From: a virus
Taxonomy: Duplodnaviria; Caudoviricetes
IMG/VR virus record: IMGVR_UViG_3300036660_000029
Span: 1 to 43,260 of that record
Length of the DNA stretch: 43,260 nucleotides
Reading direction: 5' to 3' (one strand)
The position numbers and the translations under genes were made by a program. Shown here in pieces: positions 1 to 43,260 of the stretch; position 1 is the stretch's first letter, and the number at the start of each line of letters is the position of its first letter. The notes under the pieces are model-generated. The model was given only the letters and a program-made list of their open reading frames with translations, had not been told where the DNA came from and made no database searches.

Positions 1-127
1 AGGTATGACAGACCTTTTTATCACTCACTTAAATATACTCATTGGTGGCAGGACAATGCTGGATACTACCGTAACCCAAATCACTTGAATGTGGTTAAGC
101 TGGATTTAATAAAAGATATTCCCTTCC
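1..127. repeat. Terminal direct repeat, copy 1 (circular-assembly overlap)
   Basis: aggtatgacagacc...gatattcccttcc at 1-127 is identical to 43134-43260, and the reading frame continues across it. Confidence 0.97.
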
Positions 128-3585: not shown

Positions 3586-4094
3586 CAAAAGAACAATTTT
3601 TAAGTAACGTTTCATCCTGGAACGATCATCTGCCTTTATTATGGCTGGCATTACAGGAAACTAAAGGCTCAGTAGCCGAATTTGGATCAGGGGACGGAAG
3701 CACGCCCTATCTACGTGAATATTGCAAGGATACGGAACGTGAGTTTTTCACTTATGACAATAGTCCTGAATGGTGCCATACAACAGGCTCTACGTTCGTA
3801 AACTGGTCAGACGCTTCGCTATATCGTGAGTATGATGTTTGCTTAATAGATCACGCTCCAGGTGAGTTAAGGCATGAGGCGATAGCGATATTAAAGGACA
3901 AGGTGAAAATCATTGTAATACATGATAGCGAGCCCATAGGTTGCGGAAATTACAAGCTGCATAAGATTTGGCATCTGTTTAAATATATTGTTCACCTCAA
4001 ATCAGAGGGTGCCTGGGCAACGGCTGTTAGTAATCATATTGATGTTACCAAATGGGCTGGTCAGGAATTAGCGGGGTTTAAGATAGATGTATGA
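3582..4094 (+). CDS. Class I SAM-dependent methyltransferase-like protein
   Basis: VAEFGSGDGST motif I, CLIDH and IHDSE. ATG at 3582 preferred over TTG at 3573. Confidence 0.7.
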   Translation: MTKEQFLSNVSSWNDHLPLLWLALQETKGSVAEFGSGDGSTPYLREYCKDTEREFFTYDNSPEWCHTTGSTFVNWSDASLYREYDVCLIDHAPGELRHEAIAILKDKVKIIVIHDSEPIGCGNYKLHKIWHLFKYIVHLKSEGAWATAVSNHIDVTKWAGQELAGFKIDV

Positions 4095-4735
4095 AAATAG
4101 GTATAGGAATTACAACAACTTCAAACCGTTCAGAGATAGCGGAAAGGAATATTGAAACTATACGGGCTTTATCCGCGGGTTGTAAAATAGTTGTTGTTAA
4201 GGATGTGATAGGCATTGCTAAAGCTAAAAACGAATGCTTGAGGCAATTAGATGATTGCGAGCATATATTTTTATTTGATGATGATACGTACCCAAAAAAA
4301 GATGACTGGTATTTGCCATACATAGAAGCACTTACCCCTCACCTATCATTTACATTCTCAAAACTACACAACGGAGCTACTAACGGGAATAGGGTACTTG
4401 ATGGGAAATTCATGGGACTTAATATATTCCAAAATCCTTGCGGTTGTATGATGTATATTCATAAACGATGCTTAGATGTTATCGGAGGCTTTGATGAACG
4501 CTTTATAGGCTGGGGGTATGAGCATGTTAACTTCTCGCAACGGGTATTTAATGCAGGCTTAACCCCTTACCCGTTTATGGATGTTGCCAACAGTCTGGAA
4601 TTACTGCACTCAATGGATTACTACGGAGAGGTTAAAAGCAGTGTTAACGGCATGGATAGGATGAAATATATCCAGAATAACAGACCGATTTATGAGATGG
4701 AGAGTTTGAGTAAGGAGTTTATAAAATATAAATAA
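4091..4735 (+). CDS. GT2-family glycosyltransferase
   Basis: IGITT, KNECL, FLFDDD and GGFDERFIGWGYEH. Confidence 0.85.
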   Translation: MKIGIGITTTSNRSEIAERNIETIRALSAGCKIVVVKDVIGIAKAKNECLRQLDDCEHIFLFDDDTYPKKDDWYLPYIEALTPHLSFTFSKLHNGATNGNRVLDGKFMGLNIFQNPCGCMMYIHKRCLDVIGGFDERFIGWGYEHVNFSQRVFNAGLTPYPFMDVANSLELLHSMDYYGEVKSSVNGMDRMKYIQNNRPIYEMESLSKEFIKYK

Positions 4736-4998
4736 TGACAGCAGAAGAAACATTAAACGTTGTAGCTAAAGAAAACGGATACGCCAGTTATTTGGATTGC
4801 ATTACTTTTGGTAATACATACTATATACACCTTATAGCACGATTATCAGCAGAGCGTTATGCTTTAATACAAATAGAGAAAGACAGAAATAGTATAAAGG
4901 ACATATGGAAGCCACTTGCACCATGCGATATGGATACTATGCAAAATTGGAGAAACATTCGGAACGGAATAGACCAAATTGAAATCCAATTAGACTAA
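4735..4998 (+). CDS. Hypothetical protein
   Basis: ORF coupled to the upstream gene by TAATG. Confidence 0.65.
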   Translation: MTAEETLNVVAKENGYASYLDCITFGNTYYIHLIARLSAERYALIQIEKDRNSIKDIWKPLAPCDMDTMQNWRNIRNGIDQIEIQLD

Positions 4999-5535
4999 AT
5001 GAAAATCCGCTACATAACACCGTTTTCCTTTGAAAAAAACATCGGCAAAGCCCTAAATGAATCCATAGAAGAATTACCAGACGATTGTTTTGTGGTTTGT
5101 CGTGACGGCGATACCTTATTCATGCTACCTGATTGGGGTATGCAGATCAAAGAGATTATAGAGGCAAATCCCGATTATCACATTATCGGATGTATGACAA
5201 ATCGGCTATCTGTTCCACAACAATTAGCTCCCGGAATGTTTGACGAATCTGATATTGGTAAGCATATAGAAACGGCTCAAACCCTGCAACAATACAGAAC
5301 AGAGGTCGTAAAATCGAATATAGCGGCTGGTTTATGTATGATCTTTCATAAATCGGTATGGCAAAAATGTAAATTCAAAGAAAATACTGTTATATTTGAT
5401 AGGATATTCTGCATAGAGGCTTCAAAAAATGGCTTCAATATCGGGATAGCTAAAGGGTTGTACTTATTTCACCTTTACAGGTGGGGTAAAAAGAACCCGG
5501 AACAGTACAAAGACCACCTTAACCCCTTTTTATAA
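4999..5535 (+). CDS. Putative GT2-like glycosyltransferase
   Basis: YITPF, GKALN, CRDGD DxD, AGLCMIF, D..FC and YLFH; TAATG-coupled to the neck gene. Confidence 0.7.
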   Translation: MKIRYITPFSFEKNIGKALNESIEELPDDCFVVCRDGDTLFMLPDWGMQIKEIIEANPDYHIIGCMTNRLSVPQQLAPGMFDESDIGKHIETAQTLQQYRTEVVKSNIAAGLCMIFHKSVWQKCKFKENTVIFDRIFCIEASKNGFNIGIAKGLYLFHLYRWGKKNPEQYKDHLNPFL

Positions 5536-17936: not shown

Positions 17937-18113
17937 TTAATGTAATGTTAGTTCTTTAATTACCAATGCAGTAGAATCGTTTATATATTTTTCTGCTTTA
18001 TACCTATCGCTAAAGCATCCTAGTATCAATAAATCTGATTTTCTAAGGACTATAAATACTGTTTGGGTAGTTATAGGAACTACGGGTATTAATTCTTTTG
18101 AATATTCTTGCAT
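17937..18113 (-). CDS. Hypothetical protein (58 aa)
   Basis: Hand translation MQEYSKELIPVVP...KELTLH, downstream of the lipoprotein gene. Confidence 0.5.
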   Translation of the reverse strand: MQEYSKELIPVVPITTQTVFIVLRKSDLLILGCFSDRYKAEKYINDSTALVIKELTLH

Positions 18114-18118
18114 AACTA

Positions 18119-18451
18119 TTATAATTTATATTCTAAATAAACCGACTTCTCTGTAAATACCTGCGCCTTAACCACCCTACCATCTATCAATACTCTAAGC
18201 GTTGAGGTCTGATTTGGTACTCTAAAGACAAATACCTGAATGATGTATTTTTGAGTACTCACAGGAATAGTTTTTGTCCAGGATTTCCCGGTAAACTCAA
18301 AAAGTGTTTGCAATCCATGTTCAGATGTGTATTCCCCTGCATAATTACCGCTAACGTTTGTACTAAACTCGAAGGTGATCTCCCTGAATTGGGGTACATC
18401 TTTTTTGCAACTTGCTAGTGTTAGTAGTAGTATTAGGTAGAGGGGTTTCAT
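18119..18451 (-). CDS. Lipoprotein
   Basis: MKPLYLILLLTLASC-KKD lipobox with Bacteroidota-like charged residues after the Cys. Confidence 0.8.
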   Translation of the reverse strand: MKPLYLILLLTLASCKKDVPQFREITFEFSTNVSGNYAGEYTSEHGLQTLFEFTGKSWTKTIPVSTQKYIIQVFVFRVPNQTSTLRVLIDGRVVKAQVFTEKSVYLEYKL

Positions 18452-18455
18452 ACTA

Positions 18456-18812
18456 TTACTTATTAGTTGTTGGTTTTGGTGGGAGGTTCATCCAAAATGC
18501 AAATTCATCACAATGTTTTACCATGCTCCAATCATGAATTGATACAGATAAACTTTTTTGATCTTCATTTAATTTGCGGTATAAAAGAACTTTGCCGTTC
18601 TCGTCTGCATCTTCAAGTTTTGGCAATCGTTCCTTTACACTTATCCATCCCTGTTGGGGGTCTAATGATTTGGAAGTATCACCCAAACTATCCTCAATCT
18701 CCTGTAAATCATCAATTCGATCTTCAAACTCTGAATCCTGTTCGTTATCGGGGTGTGCCATTAAGCAAAGTTTGACCGACTGTATTTTATGGAGTAGTGT
18801 TTCTTTTTCCAT
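18456..18812 (-). CDS. DUF551-like phage protein
   Basis: WISVKERLP...WMNLPPKP signature. Confidence 0.7.
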   Translation of the reverse strand: MEKETLLHKIQSVKLCLMAHPDNEQDSEFEDRIDDLQEIEDSLGDTSKSLDPQQGWISVKERLPKLEDADENGKVLLYRKLNEDQKSLSVSIHDWSMVKHCDEFAFWMNLPPKPTTNK

Positions 18813-18834
18813 TGTATTCCTGTTTAGTGTGAAA

Positions 18835-18842
18835 CAAAAGTA
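18835..18842 (-). promoter_or_regulatory. Leftward -7 promoter element TACTTTTG
   Basis: Matches Bacteroidota TAnnTTTG, upstream of the gene starting at 18812. Confidence 0.6.
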
Positions 18843-18869
18843 TACATAAATATAATATGTTGTATACTT
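18838..18869. promoter_or_regulatory. Inverted repeat AAGTATACA-N14-TGTATACTT, candidate operator
   Basis: Perfect 9-bp arms between divergent promoters. Confidence 0.5.
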
Positions 18870-20125: not shown

Positions 20126-20511
20126 AAAGCATAAACGAAATGTCCAGAAAAGATTTTGAGTCTGTTCCGGATCGTGAAAACTGGAATAGCAAAATTGAGT
20201 TTAGAAGTATGGTAATTTTACCGCAAAGAACTAAGCACGATTCTGGTTATGCTTGTATGGATTTTGTTGCAGTAGATAAAAATGATTTTCCTATTTGTAG
20301 GCTTTCCGGATGTTCGGACGTTATTCACTTTGATGGAATTTCAGGAATGAAGTGGAATGGGAATGGCTTTGAAAACTTTCCGAAGAGTTCTGCATGGTCA
20401 ATAGACTGCCTGTTTAAAAGTAAACTTTTAAGGGTATTTTCAAGGGCAAATATTACGTGCGGCCCATCTTTATCATCATTTGAAATTTACGCTAAAGATA
20501 TTGAGCCATGA
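20122..20511 (+). CDS. Hypothetical phage protein
   Basis: ORF with HDSGY..M and SGCSDVI motifs. Confidence 0.7.
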   Translation: MKSINEMSRKDFESVPDRENWNSKIEFRSMVILPQRTKHDSGYACMDFVAVDKNDFPICRLSGCSDVIHFDGISGMKWNGNGFENFPKSSAWSIDCLFKSKLLRVFSRANITCGPSLSSFEIYAKDIEP

Positions 20512-20621
20512 GCAACCCCGCATCAGATCGCGCCTTTTGGCTCATTATGTTTGCATGTGCAATCCTGGCAATAACTTTTCTTTGCGAGGTTTTTGTTAGA
20601 TTTTATTTGGATGTGATATGA
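20508..20621 (+). CDS. Small membrane protein (37 aa)
   Basis: MSNPASDRAFWLIMFACAILAITFLCEVFVRFYLDVI; ATGA overlaps at both ends. Confidence 0.55.
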   Translation: MSNPASDRAFWLIMFACAILAITFLCEVFVRFYLDVI

Positions 20622-20860
20622 GACAGGACAAAGAACGTGAGGCAGAATTTCAACCTAAACGGATTGAATACGCTATACAACAATTAGAAAAGCTGGGCAT
20701 ACATATTATGTATCAAGATAATACTAAAATCCAATTTCAGCATTTAGGTAAAAAAGTGACCTTGTTCCCATATTCGGGCTGGCATTCAGGAACTACTATT
20801 AAAGACGGAAGGGGTATAGAATTATTATTGATACAATTACGAAATACAATGAATGTTTAG
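20618..20860 (+). CDS. Hypothetical phage protein
   Basis: FPYSGW.SG..I..GRG...LL motif. Confidence 0.7.
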   Translation: MRQDKEREAEFQPKRIEYAIQQLEKLGIHIMYQDNTKIQFQHLGKKVTLFPYSGWHSGTTIKDGRGIELLLIQLRNTMNV

Positions 20861-20958
20861 TATATTAGTAACACCGACTGGAACCGGTATCAACTTACTT
20901 AAATAGCCTTATTTCGGGGGCGGGGCGTTCCAGACCCAAACCCAAGTAAGGCTTTTTT
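20861..20958 (+). promoter_or_regulatory. Structured leader 1: promoter TATATTAG, 5' hairpin, terminator with complementary loop
   Basis: Hairpin loop CTGGAAC (20878-20884) is complementary to GTTCCAG (20927-20933) inside the terminator at 20905-20958. Confidence 0.7.
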
Positions 20959-20970
20959 ATTATAATCAAA

Positions 20971-21870
20971 ATGGCAAAAGAAAACACAGAATTAGCAACA
21001 ACGCAAAGCAATGAACTTGCTAAAAAACCAGCAACCCCAATGCAAGCTATTAAAAGCTACTTTACAGCCGATTCGGTAAAAGGACGCTTTCATGAAATAA
21101 TGGGTAAAAAGGCGCAGGGATTTGTGGCCTCTATTTTACAGGTGGTTTCACAAAGCGAGGCACTGCAAAAAGTAGACCCGGCAACGATATATCAATCGGC
21201 AATGATGGCAGCAACGTTGGATTTACCTATTAATCAAAACCTGGGATTTGCCTACATTATAGGCTACGGTAATAAGGCAACGTTCCAAATGGGTTATAAG
21301 GGATATATTCAGCTTGCTCAAAGGTCAGGACTGTTTAAAACCATTTCCGCCGCTCCGATATTTGAAGGACAACTAATTGAGCAAAACCCGCTGACCGGAT
21401 TTGTATTTGACTTCACCAAAAAATCAAGTGAAAAGATAATTGGTTACGCCGCATACTTTGAACTATTGAACGGGTTTAGCAAAACTATGTTCATGACCGA
21501 AAAGGAATTGAATGATCACGGTGCTAGATTTAGCCAAACATTTAAAAAAGGATTTGGACTTTGGAAAGAAGATTTTAACAGTATGGCAATTAAGACAGTG
21601 CTTAAACTATTGCTTTCAAAGTTTGCTCCGCTTTCAATTGAAATGCAAAGGGCTGTCATTGCAGATCAATCAGTCATACACGATGCCGAAACGCTTGATG
21701 TTGACTATGTAGATAATACCGAACAGTTTAAGACAGGGGCCGCAGAGGTAGAAATGGATAACCTGATCAATCAAATAAATTCAGCTAAATCAAAGGCCGA
21801 ATTAGAATCGTTAGGCACCATTCCGGATCAGTTGCTTGATTTATATAACGAAAAACTCACATCGTTATGA
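20971..21870 (+). CDS. recT: RecT-family single-strand annealing recombinase
   Basis: AATLDLPINQNLGFAYII, FQMGYKGYIQLAQRSG and MAIKTVLK.LL. Confidence 0.9.
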   Translation: MAKENTELATTQSNELAKKPATPMQAIKSYFTADSVKGRFHEIMGKKAQGFVASILQVVSQSEALQKVDPATIYQSAMMAATLDLPINQNLGFAYIIGYGNKATFQMGYKGYIQLAQRSGLFKTISAAPIFEGQLIEQNPLTGFVFDFTKKSSEKIIGYAAYFELLNGFSKTMFMTEKELNDHGARFSQTFKKGFGLWKEDFNSMAIKTVLKLLLSKFAPLSIEMQRAVIADQSVIHDAETLDVDYVDNTEQFKTGAAEVEMDNLINQINSAKSKAELESLGTIPDQLLDLYNEKLTSL

Positions 21871-22523
21871 TAGTTAGATATGACATAGAACAGGGTTCGG
21901 ATAGGTGGCACAAAGAACGATACGGCAAAATATCAGGCACATCATCAAAGGGTTTATTTGTTGACAGCGATACGCTTTTAAATAGCCTGATAGCTTGCAA
22001 TTTAGAGCCGTTTCATTTAGAGCCTCCGGGTTATCAAAATGATGCAATGATAAGAGGAAATGAACTTGAACCTTTTGGCAGAATGGAATTGAGCCGAAAA
22101 ATTAAAATAAAGTTAGTTCAAGCAGGGTGGATTCAGTCAGATATTTCAATAGTCGGTATTTCACCGGATAGTATTTCGGAATGTGAAACTATTGCTTGCG
22201 AGTTAAAATGTCCTGGCCGTGATGTTCATACATCCACTTTAAGGGAGAACAATATCCCATCAAGTAATATACATCAATGCTTGCATTATTTTACATCTCA
22301 CGAAAAGCTTAAAGAATTACACTTTGCATCATTTAGGCCAGAATCAAAAATCAGGCTATTCCATAAGGTATTAACCCGTGAAAGCATTATTAATATAGGA
22401 ACCGCTAAAACCCCTAAAATGTTTAGTATTGAGCATTTGGTTAAACTAGCTAGAAATGAAGCTATGGCAATAGAAACTAAATTATACCAGGAATTAGAAG
22501 CAATTTTAAACGTAAAGAAATGA
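21867..22523 (+). CDS. YqaJ / lambda-type exonuclease
   Basis: QGS..WH..R.G.I.GT, RG.ELEP, SPD and ELKCP. Confidence 0.88.
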   Translation: MIVRYDIEQGSDRWHKERYGKISGTSSKGLFVDSDTLLNSLIACNLEPFHLEPPGYQNDAMIRGNELEPFGRMELSRKIKIKLVQAGWIQSDISIVGISPDSISECETIACELKCPGRDVHTSTLRENNIPSSNIHQCLHYFTSHEKLKELHFASFRPESKIRLFHKVLTRESIINIGTAKTPKMFSIEHLVKLARNEAMAIETKLYQELEAILNVKK

Positions 22524-22801
22524 TATTAATATCTGTTAAGTCCGAGGTGATTGATTTCCGGAGACAGTTTGAAAAGGATTTGGATGCTGAAAGGTATTTG
22601 AAGAGGATTAAGCGGTTAATTAATTTACATAGAGTGTATTTATTAAGGCCGCTTAAACGCGAGATAGCGAAACACCGGCAAAGATCGTTTAATAAAATGA
22701 GAGCGATTCGTTTTTATAAGTACGGAATGCAGACCGCTATCCCGTTACGCATAGAGATTATTAACACAAACGCAAACCAATTACAACTACAAATCAAATG
22801 A
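22520..22801 (+). CDS. Basic hypothetical protein
   Basis: ORF coupled at both ends. Confidence 0.6.
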   Translation: MILISVKSEVIDFRRQFEKDLDAERYLKRIKRLINLHRVYLLRPLKREIAKHRQRSFNKMRAIRFYKYGMQTAIPLRIEIINTNANQLQLQIK

Positions 22802-23880
22802 ATTTTACAGTAACACAAAAAGAATTGAACGCCACCTTAAACGTAGTAATTAAGGCCGTAAAGCAAAACCCGGTATTCCCGATACTTGAACATGTTAAGG
22901 TTAATGTAACAGAAGAAACAATTGTTTTAACTTGTTCAAATCAGAATGTTGAACTATCTGCAACGATTAATGCCAAAAACAAGGATGCGGTTTCATTTTG
23001 CATACCAGCTAAAAAGCTAAGCGATTTAGTCAAGAACCTTGCAGATCAGCCATTGTCATTTGAAGTAAAGGACGGTAAAGCAAAGATCAAATCAAGTTCT
23101 GGTAAATACGAAATACCCACTGAAAGCGTGGAAGATTTTCCGGTATTCAATAAAGATAAAGACGCGGATACGTTTTCAATTTCTGCAACTGACTTTTTTA
23201 ACGGTATTAATAAAACTGAATTTGCAGTATTAAAAGAGAGCGTAGAATCAAGGCCAAACATGGCAGGGGTATTTATTGAACTTAGTGATAAAATAATCTT
23301 TACAGCAACGGATTCACACCGTATGAATCATTGTGAGTTTAAGGCCAGCCCAGCAAAAGGCAGCTTTATTATTCCTTCAACATCTTTGCCAGCTTTGCCG
23401 GATGCAGAAGGCCAGGTATTATGTTCATTATCAAAGAACTCAATCAGCCTTTCATTTGAAAACGGTATTGAGTTTAACTCTTCTTTAGTTGATGAGAAAT
23501 TTCCTGACTATAAAGCAATTATACCTGTAAATGAAAAGGGTTTTGAGGTTGGGAAGAATGAAATAATCGGGGCCTTAAAGCGTGTTATCGGTTTTGCTAA
23601 CGGGATCACAAAACAGGTTAAATTAACATTCGGTAAAACAGTGATTTTATCAGGTGAGGATAAAGCATATTCAGAGAATGCAGAAGAAACCTTAAACGGG
23701 AAATGGCTATTTGATGATTTGCAGATAGGGTTAAACGGTTCAATAATGCTTGAATCATTGCAAAGTCTTGACGGCGATATTGCTTATTTCTCATTATCGG
23801 AAGCTAATAGAGCGGTTATATTAAAAGATGATCCAAAAAGTGAAAATTATATTTTATTAATGCCCATGGTTATAAGTTAA
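22798..23880 (+). CDS. dnaN: DNA polymerase III beta sliding clamp
   Basis: 360 aa; PILE, RP.M.GV, ATDSHRM, FPDY..IIP and terminal LLMPM. Confidence 0.92.
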   Translation: MNFTVTQKELNATLNVVIKAVKQNPVFPILEHVKVNVTEETIVLTCSNQNVELSATINAKNKDAVSFCIPAKKLSDLVKNLADQPLSFEVKDGKAKIKSSSGKYEIPTESVEDFPVFNKDKDADTFSISATDFFNGINKTEFAVLKESVESRPNMAGVFIELSDKIIFTATDSHRMNHCEFKASPAKGSFIIPSTSLPALPDAEGQVLCSLSKNSISLSFENGIEFNSSLVDEKFPDYKAIIPVNEKGFEVGKNEIIGALKRVIGFANGITKQVKLTFGKTVILSGEDKAYSENAEETLNGKWLFDDLQIGLNGSIMLESLQSLDGDIAYFSLSEANRAVILKDDPKSENYILLMPMVIS

Positions 23881-23885
23881 TTTTA

Positions 23886-23986
23886 TATCTTAGTGTTATG
23901 CTTACTGGAGATTAAGCAATCGAAAACATTTAACCGGGTATAGCCGGGTGCGGATCTCCAGTCCAATCCCGGCTGTACCTTTTTTT
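23886..23986 (+). promoter_or_regulatory. Structured leader 2: promoter TATCTTAG, 5' hairpin, terminator with complementary loop
   Basis: TGCTTA-CTGGAGAT-TAAGCA hairpin. ACTGGAGAT (23904-23912) pairs with ATCTCCAGT (23954-23962) in the loop of stem GGTATAGCCGGG/CCCGGCTGTACC, which is followed by a T7 tract. Confidence 0.75.
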
Positions 23987-23993
23987 ATTTAAA

Positions 23994-25385
23994 ATGAAAC
24001 TACAACCACAATTATTTAACGACAAAATCGAATTTGAAAATGTCGTGTCCGTTATCGGCTCAGGCTACGAGGGCCAAGTATCAAAATTAGCCGTAGAGGA
24101 CGGGGTAGCCTATCGGGCAGCTAGAAAAAACATGCAGATACATTCTGCTATTATTCTAAAGATTAACGATGAATTTTCCGGGTTTATGACCTATGAAATC
24201 AATCATGACGCAAAAGAGTTTTGTCTTTTGCAGTCTGCTATGGATTTAAAGAAGAAAAACAAAGAGGTTTATTCGGGCATGGTAGGCGAAATCATTAAAC
24301 AAAACACCTACGGATATCCGATGGTAATGACCGTAAGTCAAAAGCACGATTTAGAAAACCCTAAAGTTTTTTCAGCTATTGGATTTAAAGAATATCTAAA
24401 CATGAGCGGATATTCCTACATGGTATACGGAGAATTTGAACAGGTAAGGATGAAACGTCTTGCACACGCAACAATGACTAATGTCTGGAACTCAACTAAA
24501 GGGGATTGGCTTAAAATGAAAAAAGGCTGGAACGAACAAATAGAAGCGGCTGGAGAAAAATACGAAATTGCAAACCCTAAATTTGCTTCACGGGATGGTT
24601 GCTGGCAGGGTAAAAACGGTATGTCGAATGTTGTTTTGGCAAATCATAGCATTGGCGAAGACGGCGAAGTCCAGCACAACAAGGGGAAATCATTTAACGG
24701 TAACGCATCTGTTCTTGACCCGGTTGCTTGCGAAGTTATCTTGCGCTTCTTTATGCCTATTGAAGGTAAGAGGGTTTACAATCCGTTTGGTGGAGGGGTT
24801 CAGTTTGGATTTATTTCAGGTGCGTGTGGTTACGAATACCTATCAAGCGAGATAAGGCAAAACCAGTGCGATGCTAATAATGCGATTTGTCAGGACTTTG
24901 ACGCTAAATGGCATCAATCCGATTCATCCACGTTTACCCCAGAAAAGAAATATGATTTAGTTTTCAGCTGTCCACCGTATTACAAAGTAGAGGAATATCT
25001 AGATTATGACGGAAAAGCTCCAGAAGGTGAACTAAATACCATCCCTAACTATGAGGCATTTAGAGATACCTTGTTTGAGGGTTACAAAAAAGGCATCGAG
25101 GCAATGAATGATAATTGTTTCTTTGTTGTAATGACAGGTGACAGCCGAGATAAAAACGGGGCGTATTACGGTTGTGAAGCCGAACATGAGATTTGGTTCA
25201 AGCAGCAAGGTTTACATATTTATAATAAGATTGTATATTTAGAATGTGAGTTTACAAGACTTGCACACGCTAAGAGGACTTTGCATTACCGTAAATTCCC
25301 GAAAAGAGAACAAAAGATATTGGTTTTCTACAAAGGCGATATGACAAAGATTAAAGATCGGTTTGTAAATATAGGCCGCTTGTAA
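23994..25385 (+). CDS. Amino (N6-A / N4-C type) DNA methyltransferase with a putative N-terminal GNAT-like domain
   Basis: YNPFGGG motif I and FSCPPYY motif IV; N-terminal FSGFMTY...LLQSAM...FSAIGFK resembles GNAT. Confidence 0.75.
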   Translation: MKLQPQLFNDKIEFENVVSVIGSGYEGQVSKLAVEDGVAYRAARKNMQIHSAIILKINDEFSGFMTYEINHDAKEFCLLQSAMDLKKKNKEVYSGMVGEIIKQNTYGYPMVMTVSQKHDLENPKVFSAIGFKEYLNMSGYSYMVYGEFEQVRMKRLAHATMTNVWNSTKGDWLKMKKGWNEQIEAAGEKYEIANPKFASRDGCWQGKNGMSNVVLANHSIGEDGEVQHNKGKSFNGNASVLDPVACEVILRFFMPIEGKRVYNPFGGGVQFGFISGACGYEYLSSEIRQNQCDANNAICQDFDAKWHQSDSSTFTPEKKYDLVFSCPPYYKVEEYLDYDGKAPEGELNTIPNYEAFRDTLFEGYKKGIEAMNDNCFFVVMTGDSRDKNGAYYGCEAEHEIWFKQQGLHIYNKIVYLECEFTRLAHAKRTLHYRKFPKREQKILVFYKGDMTKIKDRFVNIGRL

Positions 25386-26221
25386 TGCGTGAGTATTCAG
25401 AGAAAATATCGCTAACCCAAAATTCAAGAGGTATCTATTCTTTAGATACCTCTATCGGGTGTGCTTCTGGAATGGAAAACGAAGCCGGTGGTTGCTATAA
25501 TGACTGCTACGCTGCAAAATCTGCAAAGTTATACGGTTATGATTTTAGTAAAACAGTTTTAAGGTCATTTGAAAACGAACGCCAAAGAATACAGATAGTA
25601 AAGAAAATAGGCCGCATAGGTTTAGATTTTGTACGTATCGGAACAAGTGGCGATCCGTCTGAAAACTGGCAACATACTATTTCGATAATTAAGCAAATAG
25701 AGCACTGTAATAAGCAAATCGTAATCATAACCAGGCATTGGACTGAATTAACAGACGAACAGTTACAATATTTTAGCACTATTAATATTTGCATAAATAC
25801 AAGCATTTCAGCACTTGATAAGCCTGAATTATTAGATAGTTGCCTTAACCAATACGAACGGCTTAAACCGTACTGCAAATCAATTTTAAGGGTGGTATCA
25901 GCTAGTTTTAACTTAGATAATCCAGGAGGCCACAGAATGGCTAAAATACAGGCAGCATTATTTAAGAATGATGCCGTGATTGACACTGTATTAAGGGTAA
26001 ATAAAAGCAACCTATTAGTTAAGAGCGGTGTAATTAACGTAACGAAAAGCGAGTTTTTAGGTAAAAAGGCACTTATTAGTAAGTACAATAAAAGCACTTA
26101 TTTTGGCAAATGTTCAACATGTCATGAGATGTGCGGATTGAATGTAAAATCTGAATTACAGCATCCTGAAAAGCCTGGAACGGTTAAACAATTAGGAATA
26201 TTTAAAAGTAAACGGAAATGA
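25385..26221 (+). CDS. Radical-SAM-like Fe-S protein
   Basis: GC-x10-C-x3-CYA, RIGTSGDP, ITR, SISALD and C-terminal CSTCHEMC; Cys spacing is atypical. Confidence 0.55.
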   Translation: MREYSEKISLTQNSRGIYSLDTSIGCASGMENEAGGCYNDCYAAKSAKLYGYDFSKTVLRSFENERQRIQIVKKIGRIGLDFVRIGTSGDPSENWQHTISIIKQIEHCNKQIVIITRHWTELTDEQLQYFSTINICINTSISALDKPELLDSCLNQYERLKPYCKSILRVVSASFNLDNPGGHRMAKIQAALFKNDAVIDTVLRVNKSNLLVKSGVINVTKSEFLGKKALISKYNKSTYFGKCSTCHEMCGLNVKSELQHPEKPGTVKQLGIFKSKRK

Positions 26222-26613
26222 AACAAAAAAACCTATTCGGTGATGAATTTAAGCCGGCAGAAAATACAAAATACTCATCTAAGATTGACGCTCCTATTTA
26301 TGAGCCAAAGAATAAAAAGCCGCATGTTTTAGAACTTGTTAATGAAAGCAAATCTAAAAGAATGATTAAAGAGATTGAAGCCTCGGGTATCCCTAAAGAA
26401 GAAAAGAGATTTTTAATTGAGGCTGCAAAAAGGCACAATGTTTTTAATTATGAAAAGATTGCTGATTATTATGCTCATTCAAGTGCAGAGGTTCAGAACT
26501 TGATGGAAAACTCGGCTTTAGTTATTATTGATTTCAATAAAGCGATTGAATACGGATATGTGAAATTATGTGATGATATTAAATCTCAATACCTAGAAGA
26601 ATATGGAGAATAA
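26218..26613 (+). CDS. Hypothetical protein preceding the glycosyltransferase
   Basis: YSSKIDAPIYEP...IADYYAH...MENSALVIIDF; overlaps the next gene. Confidence 0.7.
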   Translation: MKQKNLFGDEFKPAENTKYSSKIDAPIYEPKNKKPHVLELVNESKSKRMIKEIEASGIPKEEKRFLIEAAKRHNVFNYEKIADYYAHSSAEVQNLMENSALVIIDFNKAIEYGYVKLCDDIKSQYLEEYGE

Positions 26614-27463
26614 TTCTTTTGCGGTTTTTATCTTGACTCACGGGCGGCCAGATAACGTCAAGACAGTGAAAACACTTCAAAGGTGTGGCTATACAGGTAA
26701 AACATATTTCATCGTAGATAATGAAGATGTATCTATTGATAGGTATATCGAAAATTTCGGGTCAGAATACGTTAAGGTTTTCGATAAAAAGGCAATAGCC
26801 GATAGTGTTGACGAGGGTAATAATTTTGATAATAGAAAGGTAATAATACACGCTAGGAATGCTTGTTTTGAGATAGCAAAGGAATTGAATGTAAAGTACT
26901 TCATTCAGCTTGACGATGATTACAAGGGCTTTGGTTACAGGCTTTTAATAAACGAAAAAGGGATTCACGTACCCATAAAGAGCCTAGATTCATATTTTAT
27001 AAAGCTAATTGCTTTTTACGAAACAAGAAATTTTTTAAGTATATCGTTTTCTCAGGGTGGTGATTTCATCGGAGGTCTAAACAACGGCAAAAAACTTTAC
27101 AGGTTTAGCAAAAGAAAATGCATGAACTCTTTTTTGTGTTCAATAGATAGGCCATTTAAGTTTATAGGTTCAATAAATGAAGATGTAAATACTTATACAT
27201 CTCTTGGTAGTCGCGGCGATCTGTTTTTGACAATACCGTTTGTTTCTTTAGACCAAGAAGCTACTCAAAGCAATAAAAGCGGTATGACAGATGTGTATGC
27301 GCTTTCTGGAACATATGTTAAATCATTCCATAGCGTTATGATGCATCCGTCTAGCGTTAAAATTGCCTTAATGCTAAGTAAGCACACTAGAATACATCAT
27401 GCAATAAAATGGATTAATACAGTACCGGTAATCATTAATGAAAAACACAAAAAACATGTTTAA
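26603..27463 (+). CDS. GT-A glycosyltransferase resembling phage DNA-base (TAGT-like) glycosyltransferases
   Basis: FILTHGRP, ARN, QLDDDY, INEDVN and Q.N.SGMT motifs. Confidence 0.65.
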   Translation: MENNSFAVFILTHGRPDNVKTVKTLQRCGYTGKTYFIVDNEDVSIDRYIENFGSEYVKVFDKKAIADSVDEGNNFDNRKVIIHARNACFEIAKELNVKYFIQLDDDYKGFGYRLLINEKGIHVPIKSLDSYFIKLIAFYETRNFLSISFSQGGDFIGGLNNGKKLYRFSKRKCMNSFLCSIDRPFKFIGSINEDVNTYTSLGSRGDLFLTIPFVSLDQEATQSNKSGMTDVYALSGTYVKSFHSVMMHPSSVKIALMLSKHTRIHHAIKWINTVPVIINEKHKKHV

Positions 27464-27668
27464 TAAATTCGGATATTTCAAAGAGTATTACGTAGGCAAT
27501 AAGTTTATAGGGCTTATCAAGTGCGATAAAGACCGGGATACATTTGGATTTTTCGGTCAAAAAGACGAGGTTTTAAATGAAGACATAGTATTCCCCAACA
27601 AGAGTAAAATCAAAAAAGGTACTAAGGTTCAAACCATGCTTTTTGAGTTTTGCGGACTAACTAAATAA
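27456..27668 (+). CDS. Hypothetical protein
   Basis: ORF; start is 27456 or 27438. Confidence 0.6.
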   Translation: MFNKFGYFKEYYVGNKFIGLIKCDKDRDTFGFFGQKDEVLNEDIVFPNKSKIKKGTKVQTMLFEFCGLTK

Positions 27669-27692
27669 ATTAAACAATCTAAACTTAAAAAA

Positions 27693-27914
27693 ATGGAACA
27701 GAATCAATCAGTTAAAGCACAAATCAAGTCCTATTTGCAATCAGGCAAAATCCTTACATCTTGCACAGCCGCAAAGCAATTTTTAACAGCCGATTTACGC
27801 AAATATATATCTGTTCTCAGGTCTGAGGGCTTGAAAATATCGGATGAGTTAGTTGAAAACAACAATAAAAAAAGGTTTAAAAGGTACTTTATTTTACAGG
27901 ATGGAAGCGTATGA
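27693..27914 (+). CDS. Winged helix-turn-helix protein
   Basis: I..YLQSGK.LT...A...LRKYISVLR.EG..I pattern. Confidence 0.7.
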   Translation: MEQNQSVKAQIKSYLQSGKILTSCTAAKQFLTADLRKYISVLRSEGLKISDELVENNNKKRFKRYFILQDGSV

Positions 27915-28239
27915 CATTAGGGGCCAATATGCTTGGTCTGAATCGGGTATGGCTTTGTTACAAGAAATTCAAATAATCATTGACGATAACGGAGGATATG
28001 AAAAGTATTTCGAAATTGTTCACCGGGAATCACAGGAAAACCTATATAAAACCGACACCTTAAAGTTTAGATCAGATGTTTTAAAGATGGTTAACCGTAT
28101 TCATAGCCACGACATACCAGGAATTTTAGGTATTTCACAAAGCAGATACCAGGCTATTTTAAAAGATTTAGGATTAATCGGGAAATTAGTTCGTAGAAAA
28201 AAGAAGATAAGGACAAATACTTTCCCGACTTATCTATAA
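27901..28239 (+). CDS. Hypothetical protein with C-terminal HTH-like segment
   Basis: IPGILGISQSRY...L..LG; ATG 27901 preferred. Confidence 0.55.
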   Translation: MEAYDIRGQYAWSESGMALLQEIQIIIDDNGGYEKYFEIVHRESQENLYKTDTLKFRSDVLKMVNRIHSHDIPGILGISQSRYQAILKDLGLIGKLVRRKKKIRTNTFPTYL

Positions 28240-28245
28240 AATTGT

Positions 28246-28361
28246 TATATTAGTAACTAGCTACAACATTATAAAATGATATTTAAAACATCCCTTTCAC
28301 CGTCTTTTACCGGCATCCGCTGGAGTGTTGTAGCGACTTTTTTTCGGTGGAAGGGTTTTTT
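28246..28361 (+). promoter_or_regulatory. Structured leader 3: promoter TATATTAG, 5' seed, terminator with complementary loop
   Basis: GCTACAACA (28260-28268) pairs with TGTTGTAGC (28326-28334) inside stem CCCTTTCACCG/CGGTGGAAGGG, which is followed by T6. Confidence 0.7.
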
Positions 28362-28373
28362 AACTTATTAAAA

Positions 28374-29144
28374 ATGGCAAAAGACCCCGCATTTTTATTT
28401 TATTCATCTGATTTTTTGTCTGGCATCCAGGATTTAACTATGGAAGAAAGAGGCCAATATATAACTCTTTTATGCTTGCAACATCAAAAAGGTAGGCTGT
28501 CTGACAAGCTAATTGCACTAAGCGTGGGCAATGCCGCGGCAGATGTCATGGCAAAGTTTCGGCAGGATTCTGCATCGCTCTGGTATAATGATCGGCTAGA
28601 GGTGGAAACACAGAAACGCAAGGAGTCTGCCGAAAAACAACGTAAAAGAGCCGTAGATGGCTGGGAAAAGAGAAAAAAGGATGCCGGATTAAATGCCGTG
28701 GCATACGCCGTGGCAATGCCTTTAGAAGATATAAATGAAAATAGAAATAGAGATATAAATATAATTGATAATGAAAGAGAAAATAAAATTAAAGAAGTTT
28801 CATTAAAAATTTTAACCGACTTTAACTTTACTGAAATAAGGAACGCAAATCATTTAATGAAAATAGGCTCATTTGTAAGACTTCTGTTTGCAAACAATAA
28901 CTTTGATTATTTCAAAGAACAATATCCGGCGTACTGGAAATACAAAAAACAATCAGGATCAGAAACGCAATCACTTGATACATTTTTAAACAACGGCTGG
29001 GATAGGGAGGTATGGACTGAAAAATTAAAACAACATGGAGAATCAAGACAATCAACTAAAAACGCAAAACAACAATCAGTTGCAGAACTTAGAGAGGCAG
29101 CCCGCGCTGTTATTGCAAACCATCAATCCCAAAACGGTAGCTGA
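28374..29144 (+). CDS. Replication initiator (DUF1376 / YdaU-like N-terminus)
   Basis: MAKDPAFLFYSSDFL...LTMEERGQYITLLC; contains internal iterons and an AT-rich linker. Confidence 0.8.
   Translation: MAKDPAFLFYSSDFLSGIQDLTMEERGQYITLLCLQHQKGRLSDKLIALSVGNAAADVMAKFRQDSASLWYNDRLEVETQKRKESAEKQRKRAVDGWEKRKKDAGLNAVAYAVAMPLEDINENRNRDINIIDNERENKIKEVSLKILTDFNFTEIRNANHLMKIGSFVRLLFANNNFDYFKEQYPAYWKYKKQSGSETQSLDTFLNNGWDREVWTEKLKQHGESRQSTKNAKQQSVAELREAARAVIANHQSQNGS
28531..28800. other. Putative replication origin (iterons plus A-rich tract)
   Basis: TGCCnnGGCA-like repeats at about 28532, 28544, 28694 and 28706, then a purine-skewed AT-rich tract. Confidence 0.6.
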
Positions 29145-33619: not shown

Positions 33620-34040
33620 TAACGATTTAGACTTTGATACTTTAATGCATCAAAAAGAGGTTGTTGAAAGCCTCAATGGGATTTCTTTGAGCCTATCACA
33701 GCTTAAAAGCGAAACTATTAGCTCTGATTTAATCGAGCATCAAATAGAGGCTGTTAACCGCTTTGCCGAAACAATCAAAGCAATGCCGGCACCAGAAGTT
33801 AGCGTATCGGTCAATAACGAGGCATTAACGGTGTCAATAACCGATTTAGCAAATAGTATAGTTAAAGATCAAAAGGTTTTATCAGAGGCGATTGAATTAC
33901 AGGCAGATCAACAAAAACAGATCGCATTATCTATAAAAGAATTAACGGCGGAGATCGCTAAAAAGAGGGAATGGATTTTCACTCATAAAAAAGACGATAG
34001 AGGCGATATTATATCCACAACAGCAATACAAACAAGATAA
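33612..34040 (+). CDS. Hypothetical coiled-coil protein of the head module
   Basis: Helical, with P.V.V.V and terminal W.F...KD..G.I. Confidence 0.65.
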   Translation: MHDNDLDFDTLMHQKEVVESLNGISLSLSQLKSETISSDLIEHQIEAVNRFAETIKAMPAPEVSVSVNNEALTVSITDLANSIVKDQKVLSEAIELQADQQKQIALSIKELTAEIAKKREWIFTHKKDDRGDIISTTAIQTR

Positions 34041-39786: not shown

Positions 39787-39803
39787 TATTAACTAACCAA
39801 TAG

Positions 39804-39834
39804 AAAAACCTCTGCAAATCGCAGGGGTTTTTTT
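39804..39834 (+). terminator. Intrinsic terminator after the capsid gene
   Basis: AAAAACCTCTGC-AAATC-GCAGGGGTTTTTTT. Confidence 0.85.
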
Positions 39835-40527: not shown

Positions 40528-41208
40528 ATGATCAGCGTAATACATCCGAGCAGGGGGAGGCCAGAATTAGCGTTTGATACTATGGTATCTAAGTGGCTAT
40601 TAAAAAATGATAGCGGTAAAAATATTCAATATATAGTATCGGTAGATGAAGATGATCCTGAATTATATAAATATAAATATTGGTTTACCGAGGTTTGCGA
40701 GGGCATAGGTTTTGTTGTCAATCCCAATAAATCGGCAATAGATGCAATAAACAACGCCGCCAAAATAGCAACAGGCGATTTACTTGTCGTCATAAGCGAT
40801 GATATGGACTGCCCCGAACGCTGGGATACCTTACTATTAGAAGCCATTGGTGACAAACAAGACTTTTGCGCTAAAACCTCAGACGGTCATCAGGACTGGT
40901 TAATCACTTTGCCGATTCTTGATAGAACTTTCTATAATAGATTTGGATACGTATACCATCCCGATTTTAAGCATATGCATTGTGACTTAGACCTTACGTG
41001 CAGGGCGTGGATGTTAGATAGGTATATTGAATTGCCTTTGACATTCAAACATAATCACTATTCACTAACTGGGCAGCAGCCAGACGAAATTAACCGCAGA
41101 AACAACGCAACATGGGGGCACGGGAGGATGACATTCAATGAAAGACTGGCAAGGAATTTTGATCTGGCAGGCGGCCTTAAGCCATTACCTATTTTACCTA
41201 AATACTGA
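40528..41208 (+). CDS. GT2-like glycosyltransferase
   Basis: ISVIHPSRGRP, VSVDEDD, AINNAA..ATGD, ISDD, CD.D and H.H. Confidence 0.8.
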   Translation: MISVIHPSRGRPELAFDTMVSKWLLKNDSGKNIQYIVSVDEDDPELYKYKYWFTEVCEGIGFVVNPNKSAIDAINNAAKIATGDLLVVISDDMDCPERWDTLLLEAIGDKQDFCAKTSDGHQDWLITLPILDRTFYNRFGYVYHPDFKHMHCDLDLTCRAWMLDRYIELPLTFKHNHYSLTGQQPDEINRRNNATWGHGRMTFNERLARNFDLAGGLKPLPILPKY

Positions 41209-41774
41209 TGAAAAGACCTTTATACCTTTTAAAATTACCGGCTCCAATAATTGATTTGGACGGGGAAATATGGAAACCCGTTATTGTTAATATCATTCAT
41301 TATAAGTATGAGATAAGCAACATGGGAAGATTAAAGTATTTTTCAAGATCGGCTCCCAGATTGGTAAGCACATCAAAGAAACCTAATATGTACAGTTGTC
41401 ATACATTGTATGGCTATGGAGAAACACCGGATATTAATATATCTATACATAGGCTAGTAGGTTTGCATTTTGTTGAAAACCCAGATAATTTACCAGAGGT
41501 GAACCATAAGAACGCTATCAAAAACGATAATCTGCATAGCAATTTGGAATGGGTAACTAAAAAAGGAAATTCTCAACACGCATTAATAAACGGGTTGCGG
41601 ATATTCAAATACGGGTCGGACAATAAATCTGCAAAGTTGGCTATAAATATAGAAACCGGGATATTTTATGATACAATAAGAGATGCGGCCAAAGCACACA
41701 ATCTTAAACACGGTACCCTTACACATAGACTTTCAGGAAGATTAGTTAACAACACATCTATTTTAGTTGTATGA
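41208..41774 (+). CDS. NUMOD4-HNH homing endonuclease
   Basis: EIWKPV, YEISNMGR, HRLV..HF...VNHKN..K.DN...NLEWVT and a C-terminal NUMOD1-like segment. Confidence 0.92.
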   Translation: MKRPLYLLKLPAPIIDLDGEIWKPVIVNIIHYKYEISNMGRLKYFSRSAPRLVSTSKKPNMYSCHTLYGYGETPDINISIHRLVGLHFVENPDNLPEVNHKNAIKNDNLHSNLEWVTKKGNSQHALINGLRIFKYGSDNKSAKLAINIETGIFYDTIRDAAKAHNLKHGTLTHRLSGRLVNNTSILVV

Positions 41775-42442
41775 ACCTCCTTATAAAATACGCAACCCGT
41801 GGCCGCAGATCGTTGTACAATCAAGCGATCAGGAATGTAGAAGCTATGACAGCCGGAACATATCAGTTAGTAGTATCTGCTGATAATTGCGATCCGTGTA
41901 TGCAGGGATTAAATATTAACTACGATGCCAGAACCTCTAAGATCGGAGCTATTAATAGGGATTTAGATAATGTCAAATTCGACTGGTTAGTGAACTTTAG
42001 TGATGATATGATTTTCACCGCTCCGGGTTGGGATCAAAGGATGCTACGAAAAATCCGCTCCATTTGGGGTGATAGCACTGACTTCTTTGCTCATTTCAAT
42101 GATGGCTTTGTTGGTCATAAATTACCCACTATGTCCGTTATCGGCTGGGACTATTACCAACGTGACAAATACATTTATCATCCCTCATACAAGTCCGTAT
42201 CATGTGATGCGGAGGCTATGTTCGTGGCTATGATGCGAGGCAGGCACCACTATTTCCCGGAGGTGTACTTTAATCACATACACCCGGCAAATTTGCGTTT
42301 TCCATCTGATCAAACGTATAGGGATAATGATAAGTTTGGATCAGAGGACACGGCTAACTATTTTGAACGGATGTCAAGATGTTTTGAAGTTGAAAACCCG
42401 GTAATGGTGCCGGATGAAATTAGGAGGGCAATGAAGATATGA
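41771..42442 (+). CDS. GT2-like glycosyltransferase (distant paralog of 40528)
   Basis: KYATRGR, KIGAINR, FSDDM, YIYHP.YK...CD.E and H.HP. Confidence 0.75.
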   Translation: MNLLIKYATRGRRSLYNQAIRNVEAMTAGTYQLVVSADNCDPCMQGLNINYDARTSKIGAINRDLDNVKFDWLVNFSDDMIFTAPGWDQRMLRKIRSIWGDSTDFFAHFNDGFVGHKLPTMSVIGWDYYQRDKYIYHPSYKSVSCDAEAMFVAMMRGRHHYFPEVYFNHIHPANLRFPSDQTYRDNDKFGSEDTANYFERMSRCFEVENPVMVPDEIRRAMKI

Positions 42443-42828: not shown

Positions 42829-43260
42829 CTTTACTTATCCCAACATTAGACGGGCGTGAGCAATACCTAGAGAGGCTATTAACCGTATTACGCCCTCAAG
42901 TCAATGCGTACGGTGATAATGCCGAGATAATCATACTAAAGGACAACCGTGAGAAAACAACAGGATGGAAGCGTAACGCACTTACCGAAATGGCTATCAT
43001 CTCAGGTGCAACACATCGGGCGTTCATAGATGATGATGATACAGTTACAGACGATTACATGGATTTAAATATGCCGGGAGTTATGCAGGATTTTGACTGT
43101 AATTCATTGGTAGGTCTGTATTTCTTAAACGGTAGGTATGACAGACCTTTTTATCACTCACTTAAATATACTCATTGGTGGCAGGACAATGCTGGATACT
43201 ACCGTAACCCAAATCACTTGAATGTGGTTAAGCTGGATTTAATAAAAGATATTCCCTTCC
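42816..43260 (+). CDS. 5' part of a GT2-like glycosyltransferase continuing through the junction to position 246
   Basis: MQKLALLIPTLDGREQYL.RLL...KRNAL...AFIDDDD.V..DY; open to the end of the window. Confidence 0.85.
   Translation, partial: MQKLALLIPTLDGREQYLERLLTVLRPQVNAYGDNAEIIILKDNREKTTGWKRNALTEMAIISGATHRAFIDDDDTVTDDYMDLNMPGVMQDFDCNSLVGLYFLNGRYDRPFYHSLKYTHWWQDNAGYYRNPNHLNVVKLDLIKDIPF
43134..43260. repeat. Terminal direct repeat, copy 2
   Basis: Identical to 1-127. Confidence 0.97.

Follow-up and report, generated by a model that had tools for sequence, protein, structure and literature searches.

Background

Initiator expression in I-complex plasmids is controlled by an ordered series of steps that involve a leader peptide, a pseudoknot and the antisense RNAI, and the c4 system of phages P1 and P7 includes a third, processed RNA that acts in trans in lysogens. 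In the guanidine-IV (mepA) motif, a loop-loop kiss is reported to compete with the growth of the terminator in a narrow co-transcriptional window, favouring read-through; the letters of this kiss are conserved to about 97%, and not all compensatory swaps succeed (PMC11611296). The PeSL elements of T4-like phages carry a stem-loop between or on the promoter boxes, which stops upstream transcripts (PMC2839356, PMC4122927). Here we describe three intergenic leaders, denoted L1, L2 and L3, at positions 20,861 to 28,361 of a 43,260-nt Caudoviricetes sequence (IMG/VR record IMGVR_UViG_3300036660_000029; this entire stretch is called the window below), and compare them with these systems. Each leader combines a promoter box, a short seed close to the predicted transcription start, and a long stem with a U-tract that contains the reverse complement of the seed (anti-seed); the pairing of the two is called the kiss, and its letters the code.

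The leaders are members of a real, uncatalogued family of phage leader RNAs with two sub-types, and their sequences indicate that they are likely attenuators. The family is widespread but absent from Rfam 15: there were no matches to this database in the window (best E=1 in 20700-28500), in line with the statement of the initial annotation, made from the sequence alone, that no named RNA family fits. To our knowledge, the timing and dosing of replication genes without a repressor in virulent Bacteroidota phages have been little studied, and the leaders provide a concrete handle on this timing.

Architecture of the three leaders

All three leaders start with a -7 box of the TAnnTTAG type, a variant of the Bacteroidota -7 element TAnnTTTG, which sits 4-5 nt ahead of the transcription start (PMC6847099, section 14). 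In L1, the box TATATTAG (20861..20868, on the + strand, as are all features given here) is followed by a predicted 5' hairpin, P1, at the predicted +1 (20873..20888), with the seed CTGGAAC (20878-20884) in its loop, and by a long stem, P2, with a U-tract (20905..20958; stem 20905-20953, U6 20953-20958; -22.6 kcal/mol), whose apical loop holds the anti-seed GTTCCAG (20927..20933) ahead of the gene's ATG at 20971. L2 consists of the box TATCTTAG (23886..23893), a predicted P1 (23899..23918) with the seed ACTGGAGAT (23904-23912) in its loop, an A-rich spacer between P1 and P2 (23919..23936), and P2 with its U-tract (23937..23986; stem 23937-23979, U7 23980-23986; -27.2 kcal/mol), which includes the anti-seed (23954..23962); the ATG is at 23994. 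L3 starts with the same box, TATATTAG (28246..28253), and its seed GCTACAACA (28260..28268) lies near the predicted +1, outside any hairpin, with a helix that grows to 11 bp with one G-U pair. Its P2 (28292..28361; stem 28292-28355, U6 28356-28361) has an 11-bp outer helix, an inner hairpin (28310..28323) and the anti-seed (28326..28334). A candidate leader open reading frame (ORF) of 31 codons (28276..28371) would span the entire stem and stop 2 nt ahead of the initiator ATG at 28374.

Re-reading of the coordinates placed the boxes, seeds, stems, anti-seeds and U-tracts of all three leaders where the initial annotation had them. The single layout that it described was borne out as a set of common parts but splits into two sub-types, because the L1 and L2 seeds lie in a 5' hairpin loop, which had been missed, and the L3 seed does not; the candidate leader ORF of L3 had also escaped notice. 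Likewise, the TAnnTTAG box is present at all three sites but shows no genome-wide enrichment (27 found, 40.9 expected) and is a minority form of TAnnTTTG (3/52 relatives); a sigma-70 scan, directed at the wrong promoter type for this setting, stayed at the background level.

The stems begin 36-43 nt past the box, the anti-seed lies 19, 17 and 21 nt from the stem end in L1, L2 and L3, respectively, strong kiss duplexes are predicted (-8.9 to -11.7 kcal/mol), and termination is predicted to release RNAs of 88, 90 and 106 nt. The three copies differ in sequence and are not near-identical repeats. When the 25 nt after the box were shuffled and compared with the leader's own loop, an equally long match appeared in 93, 2 and 15 of 5000 trials for L1, L2 and L3. 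A pattern detector run on both strands of the window found these three sites and no others; of 30 block shuffles, 7 contained one site and none contained two or more, a control that is tuned, the detector having been loosened after its first version found L3 alone. Each box starts 0-6 nt past the upstream stop codon (the gene upstream of L1 stops at 20860), and there is no further -7 box between any leader's box and its ATG in the window. Thus, transcription of the downstream genes likely passes through the hairpin, which, given that replication genes are among them, would have to leak or switch.

Relatives and covariation of the pairing

The search pattern for L1-type leaders specified the box and the base of the stem and was blind to the seed. 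It yielded 110 viral loci with 76 distinct matches, of which 52 were followed by an ORF of at least 40 codons within 45 nt. Among these 52, a perfect match of at least 6 nt between the leader's own head and loop was found in 50 and of at least 7 nt in 36, against 18.5% and 5.2% of swapped pairs (n=2652); the 24 distinct matches without such an ORF were near background (at least 6 in 6/24, at least 7 in 3/24). About 40 different best-match seeds occur among the 52 leaders, and the alignment has no invariant seed column. The surroundings are more regular: a helix of at least 3 bp encloses the seed in 48/50 relatives, the anti-seed lies within the apical loop in 47/48 and ends 16-20 nt ahead of the stem end in 44/50, and P1 begins 5-7 nt past the box in 31/48. 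In 14/52 leaders, the loop-E letters AGUA..GAA are present, an RNA-level sign in favour of the pairing. A covariance model (R2) built from 47 of the 52 rows, with four doubtful rows and L450, a near relative of L1, omitted, recovered L1 in the window at 40.9 bits (E 1e-4) and L3 at E 0.025. In L450, most of L1 is kept, with the seed and loop changed together in a compensated manner. A depth-149 contig in public run X3 carries a nearly unchanged L1 (window 20861-20936). The similarity sets in at the first box nucleotide, one pair at the base of the stem has changed in a compensated manner, and the flanking sequences are unrelated; therefore, the leader travels as a cassette.

Some relatives have features of their own. 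The codes at L386 5103 and L763 7873 are near mirror images, with CTTCCAC as seed and GTGGAAG as loop in one and the reverse in the other; several seeds have palindromic cores; and additional hairpins occur within the spacer or the stem itself (L001 2417-2540, L002 1840-1960, L449 1550).

The second form, the L3-type, was first seen in relatives of the initiator. Here, too, the pattern was blind to the seed, and also to the ATG, with the stem and ORF serving as the filter: 94 loci, 61 of them distinct, gave 44 leaders past the filter, and a match of at least 9 nt (one G-U allowed) was present in 40/44 compared to 177/1892 swapped pairs. The alignment comprises 50 rows, the 44 plus six shorter-stemmed members added by hand, with 11 left out. 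In this alignment, 98.2% of the seed helix is paired, and 6/9 of its pairs show changes on both sides (107 cells, a figure that counts sequences rather than events because the rows are related); the observed value was reached in 0/500 shuffles, and slid partners gave 33-50%. The outer stem and the inner hairpin covary as well. A mid-helix G-U pair in 20/50 rows is another RNA-level sign, and 20 different seeds are found among the 50 leaders. No 5' hairpin is present in any of the 50, and the seed lies at offset 4. A model built without the window (R1) identified L3 as its best match there (24.1 bits, E 0.016). At least 22 different gene starts lie behind these 50 leaders.

The L3-type also connects this design with a candidate leader ORF. 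An ATG lies 13-19 nt ahead of the stem in 49/50 relatives, and the stop of this ORF is inside the stem in 48/49; the ATG is 9-12 nt from +1 in 47/49, so that the seed covers the bases just before it. As a general feature of the family, a leader peptide was rejected: a leader ATG was present in 9/52 L1-type leaders, not above background. In two L3-type relatives (L733, L775), one base lost before the stem and one gained before the stop keep a 13-codon leader ORF, in another frame. The Rfam DUF805b RNA motif occurs ~500-800 nt upstream of L3-type leaders (L097 988-1020, L095 2319-2351).

Comparisons of own and swapped pairs, covariation with two-sided changes, and compensated codes in cultured phages (see below) all argue that the pairing proposed in the initial annotation is real and under selection, and the relatives bear out its view that structure is kept rather than sequence. 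The letters of the code appear to be free because only the match counts.

For L2, a stem pattern gave 130 distinct matches, none with promoter and seed, model R2 did not match it at E<=5, and blastn against cultured phages returned only noise (E=1). No leader directly precedes the methyltransferase gene in three methyltransferase relatives. Most RecT relatives are distant, and those inspected have no leader directly upstream; three (L001, L002, L490) have one further upstream.

Code diversity and distribution

The number of codes raises the question whether the released leader RNAs act in trans, with a free anti-seed loop capturing the seed of new transcripts and forcing termination, as copy-number feedback or for the exclusion of co-infecting phages with the same code. 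We regard this as improbable, although several observations are consistent with it. In addition to the numerous seeds in both sub-types, 17 of 171 longer loci were flagged with two matches, 11 of them with two distinct leaders, and the codes of the co-resident leaders differ in all 11; two of these contigs combine one L1-type and one L3-type leader, like the window. Codes also change between near-identical leaders, replication genes and nucleases lie behind the leaders, and there is the precedent of the short IsrK, which targets its own read-through RNA in trans (PMC4825925). Conversely, the seed columns (1.01 bits) are no more variable than the inner helix P3 (0.99 bits), a pattern that offers no support for diversifying selection on the code; the released RNA, which includes its own seed, would need processing to free the loop; and the L1 of run X3 retains the same seed between unrelated flanks. 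The codes of L1 and L2 overlap, too: the claim that each leader has its own code holds to the extent that they differ, but ACTGGA is common to the L1 and L2 seeds (20877-20882, 23904-23909), with CTGGAG also in the inner hairpin of L3 (28319-28324), and cross-pairing between L1 and L2 is possible over 5-7 nt, 7 nt for the L1 head with the L2 loop. A long shot of a broader kind is an RNA address code in virulent Bacteroidota phages, whereby a code of 7-11 bases, specific to each replication or nuclease module, would decide read-through, and the released leaders would serve as code-specific brakes in trans. If true, this would amount to plasmid-like copy control and incompatibility in lytic phages without a protein, ligand or antisense gene. 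Orthogonal code pairs are also potential regulatory parts for Bacteroidota.

The genes immediately behind the 52 L1-type leaders encode helicases or primases (9), methyltransferases (7), nucleases (7), initiator-like proteins (3) and other proteins (6), with 20 lacking a Pfam match. This spread indicates that the design is not tied to homing endonucleases. No transporter was found among 78 first genes behind leaders in a Pfam scan. In GTDB, the L1-type pattern matched 120 loci, 14 with an ORF, and the design was identified only in L609, a 7.5-kb contig of a Flavobacterium metagenome-assembled genome. Model R2 matched 2 of 151 genomes of the same family, one of them real (L803, a genome-bin contig with its own 10-base match); this model missed its positive control in the genome search, so that chromosomal absence is not established.

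Three cultured phages carry leaders. Flavobacterium phage snusmum6-1 has three (at 9708, 13649 and 14684), and Flavobacterium phage hattifnatt9-1 has the matching three, the third read from the fold rather than called by the detector. Between these two phages, the third leaders are 93% identical, with a compensated two-base difference in the code. Tenacibaculum phage Gundel_1 has one leader at 33891 within the 30 kb examined, also read from the fold and not passed by the detector. Both Flavobacterium phages were isolated as virulent, and promoters and terminators are not mentioned in the main text of the respective paper (PMC7077304). The temperate Leeuwenhoekiella phage Arctus_1 yielded no leader, and blastn of L1 and one L3-type leader against cultured phages gave nothing meaningful. 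With the three carriers in culture, two of which provide a natural compensated pair, the mechanism is directly testable.

These data bear on the comparison, made in the initial annotation, with the logic of P4 CI and P1 c4. Immunity of this type, or antisense control by a separate RNA as in plasmids, would account for short complementary blocks upstream of replication genes, and one carrier is indeed a provirus with an integrase; nevertheless, we consider it very improbable. The tyrosine integrase domain PF00589 is present in that one record alone among 10 carrier records, the cultured Flavobacterium carriers are described as virulent, and Rfam gave no C4 match. On the opposite strand, a -7 box was found in 0/3 window leaders, 0/50 L3-type and 4/52 L1-type leaders against ~9 expected, a count that covers -7-type boxes only. 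The L1, L2 and L3 anti-seeds each occur once at full length in the window, with other 7-mer copies lying outside the listed gaps, and no extra seed or anti-seed copy was found in the window's intergenic gaps, which speaks against the trans RNA that had been suggested as a controller; eight other records contain 0-2 extra copies each, counted without regard to context. A shared phage protein, another suggested controller, did not emerge, as no small window protein is common to the 10 carrier records. A shared phage antiterminator was rejected as a candidate, with none found among 37 window proteins compared with these records.

Proposed mode of action

On balance, we consider it somewhat probable that each leader is a self-contained transcription attenuator in cis, in which pairing before hairpin closure would favour read-through. 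This model draws on the observed parts, the covariation of the pairing, the fixed spacing, the restriction to phages seen in the searches and the portability between genes. A likely host-type promoter would fire, and the first bases of the RNA would pair with the matching loop inside the U-tailed hairpin; if this happens ahead of hairpin closure, transcription would continue into the DNA-replication genes, and without timely pairing, the polymerase would terminate and release an RNA of 90-110 nt. The anti-seed would exit the polymerase ~10-15 nt short of the stop point, and the kiss, if made first, would close a ring through which the 3' arm, tethered to the polymerase, could not wind. In L1 and L2, the pre-formed 5' hairpin would speed the kiss; in L3, a ribosome translating the leader ORF would keep the stem from closing while the seed finds its partner. 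The input would most likely be the speed of elongation, plus translation for L3, rather than a ligand or antisense RNA, and the hairpin may also trim read-through from the upstream module. The suggestion that the switch is restricted to transcripts from the local start site finds little room here, given that the 5' hairpin of L1 and L2 should fold locally whatever lies upstream. That a kiss can oppose terminator closure, as also suggested initially, has a precedent in guanidine-IV (PMC11611296).

Much of this reasoning turns on spacing. The distance of 16-21 nt from anti-seed to stem end is fixed, so that the anti-seed emerges shortly before the stem can close, and the length of the spacer in L1-type leaders drops with rising stem height (rho -0.45, n=48, among related sequences), down to 9-13 nt against stems of 13-19 bp. 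Spacers that shrink with longer stems fit a competition better than one static fold holding both elements. Such a static fold is the basis of an alternative that we deem unlikely, albeit worth weighing, namely, that the pairing is a structural lock, yielding a compact leader or a released 90-110 nt RNA with protected ends, stabilising the RNA or keeping the start region clear, with a leaky terminator. Both sub-types have a paired 5' end, through P1 and the L3-type seed, respectively, the kiss duplexes are predicted to be strong, a 20-nt spacer could span a 15-bp stem in the L3-type, and initiation in Bacteroidetes requires low structure near the ATG (PMC6847099). The short spacers and their negative correlation with stem length argue against a lock, the fixed anti-seed distance suggests timing, and a plain weaker promoter would be a simpler means of dosing.

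Several points weigh against attenuation in cis. The anti-seed lies wholly in the loop, and the kiss and the terminator share no bases, so that pairing alone does not make them exclusive; their exclusion depends on a geometric argument and on the spacer correlation among related sequences. The regulating input was not found among the candidates sought (antisense box, extra intergenic seed copy, shared protein). The box in the window has A where Flavobacterium johnsoniae has a nearly invariant T (PMC6847099), and the pairing in L2, which has no relative, rests on one sequence. Regarding the L3-type, the U-tract is interrupted (TATTT) in 49/50 relatives, and 7-17 nt separate the stem end from the ATG, a combination of weak U-tract and nearby ATG that fits translation control better than termination. 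The leader ORF itself has a poor start context, with C at -3 in 27/49 relatives, and its peptide and frame vary.

Accommodating these L3-type features, the pairing could be an OFF state or a translational control, with the seed helix hiding the start of the leader ORF or steadying a long-looped hairpin, and with occupancy of the A-rich spacer by a ribosome or host protein as the ON signal. The position of the L3-type seed just before the leader ATG and the location of the stem inside the -20..+20 initiation zone (PMC6847099) agree with this possibility, as do the L1-type spacers, which have an A+U content of 84% and, when searched with a loosely defined pattern, contain a recurring motif in 41/48 leaders. 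We nonetheless find it quite improbable because the leader ATG is not above background in leaders of the L1/L2 type, and the L1 and L2 stems fold well unaided. Taken together, the interpretation given in the initial annotation is partly supported.

Genome setting

A 127-nt direct terminal repeat at window positions 1-127 and 43134-43260, together with a classification as direct terminal repeats with 100% completeness, indicates that the window is a complete, probably circularised phage genome of ~43 kb. The promoter boxes point to Bacteroidota as the host group. The public runs that contain the 20500-28800 stretch are ice metagenomes, one of which is possibly its source; RNA runs were absent from the list, a result with no bearing on expression. 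According to PHROG and Pfam assignments, the module behind L1 (20971..23880) encodes RecT, a YqaJ exonuclease, a small ORF and a DNA polymerase III beta clamp; the module behind L2 (23994..28239) a DNA methyltransferase, a ParB-like protein, a TET-associated glycosyltransferase and small ORFs; and the module behind L3 (28374..29745) a putative replication initiator (matching a PHROG primosomal protein and, weakly, DUF1376) together with the gene that follows. The gene behind L2, initially labelled a GNAT-methyltransferase, has the methyltransferase domain (PHROG) but no Pfam match for GNAT. A PHROG/Pfam scan of the 63 window proteins found no integrase or repressor, and a PF00589 search of the window was likewise negative.

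The methyltransferase, ParB-like protein and TET-associated glycosyltransferase form one block (23994-27463), and further glycosyltransferases are encoded at 4091-5535 and 40528-42442; a DNA or virion modification system is possible. An 11-bp inverted repeat (25427-25453) lies near the start of the ORF that follows the methyltransferase. Three leftward ORFs, one of them DUF551, and a 44-nt divergent gap occupy window positions 17937-18856, the place of the repressor in temperate phages, where no repressor family was found. The other 100-nt gap (20509-20621) contains, by eye, a hydrophobic ORF of ~37 codons, under the ORF cut-off used. A strong, ordinary terminator-like hairpin (39787-39832) directly follows the major head gene.

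Comparison with known systems

The design was not found in the full-text literature, covered mostly outside subscription papers, including the motif table of PMC2864571 and the text of PMC10690425. The latter work, Fremin et al. 2023, gave 0 matches in the three supplements searched; part of the leader family may be among its unnamed candidates. An Rfam 15 search of 19 relative loci returned two DUF805b matches only, both away from the leader.

The similarity to guanidine-IV lies in a 5' hairpin loop that pairs with the terminator loop in L1, L2 and 48/50 relatives, although not in L3. Unlike guanidine-IV, the kiss letters of the leaders are free, with per-copy codes (~40 seeds/52) and no conserved ligand-binding letters, and the leaders are phage-borne, with no guanidine exporter downstream and no Rfam match. 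With the I-complex plasmids (repB/repY, RNAI; ColIb-P9), L3 shares a candidate leader ORF and a long-range pairing ahead of an initiator (PMC10286972), but the leaders lack an antisense -7 box and, with Bacteroidota as the likely host group, Shine-Dalgarno logic, possess a U-tailed stem, and precede at least 22 gene starts in 50 cases. P4 CI (seqA/seqC), P1/P7 c4 and Gifsy-1 IsrK resemble them in the short complementary blocks and the early-terminating phage leader before replication genes (PMC4825925). The leaders, however, show two blocks only, pair in cis, and reside in mostly non-integrating carriers. The temperate context of P4 CI and c4 was not recovered in the 63 window proteins (integrase or repressor) or in 9 of the 10 carrier records (PF00589), with serine recombinases and plasmid-like prophages not separately excluded. 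PeSL elements, finally, share an intergenic promoter and stem-loop that are kept while the neighbouring genes are swapped, as with L1 in run X3 and the 22 gene starts among 50. They differ in that the hairpin of the leaders is in their own transcript, 36-43 nt past the box, with long-range pairing, and the copies are not sequence repeats; PeSL-like mini-circle joints were not seen in three contig runs, data that are unable to show absence.

By their defining features, then, the leaders are distinct from guanidine-IV, P4 CI/P1 c4, I-complex control and PeSL; in their mode of working, they are most like guanidine-IV, and L3 is also like I-complex control. Known kissing-loop attenuators do not show free letter change in a long-range pairing that is kept, whereas these leaders do.

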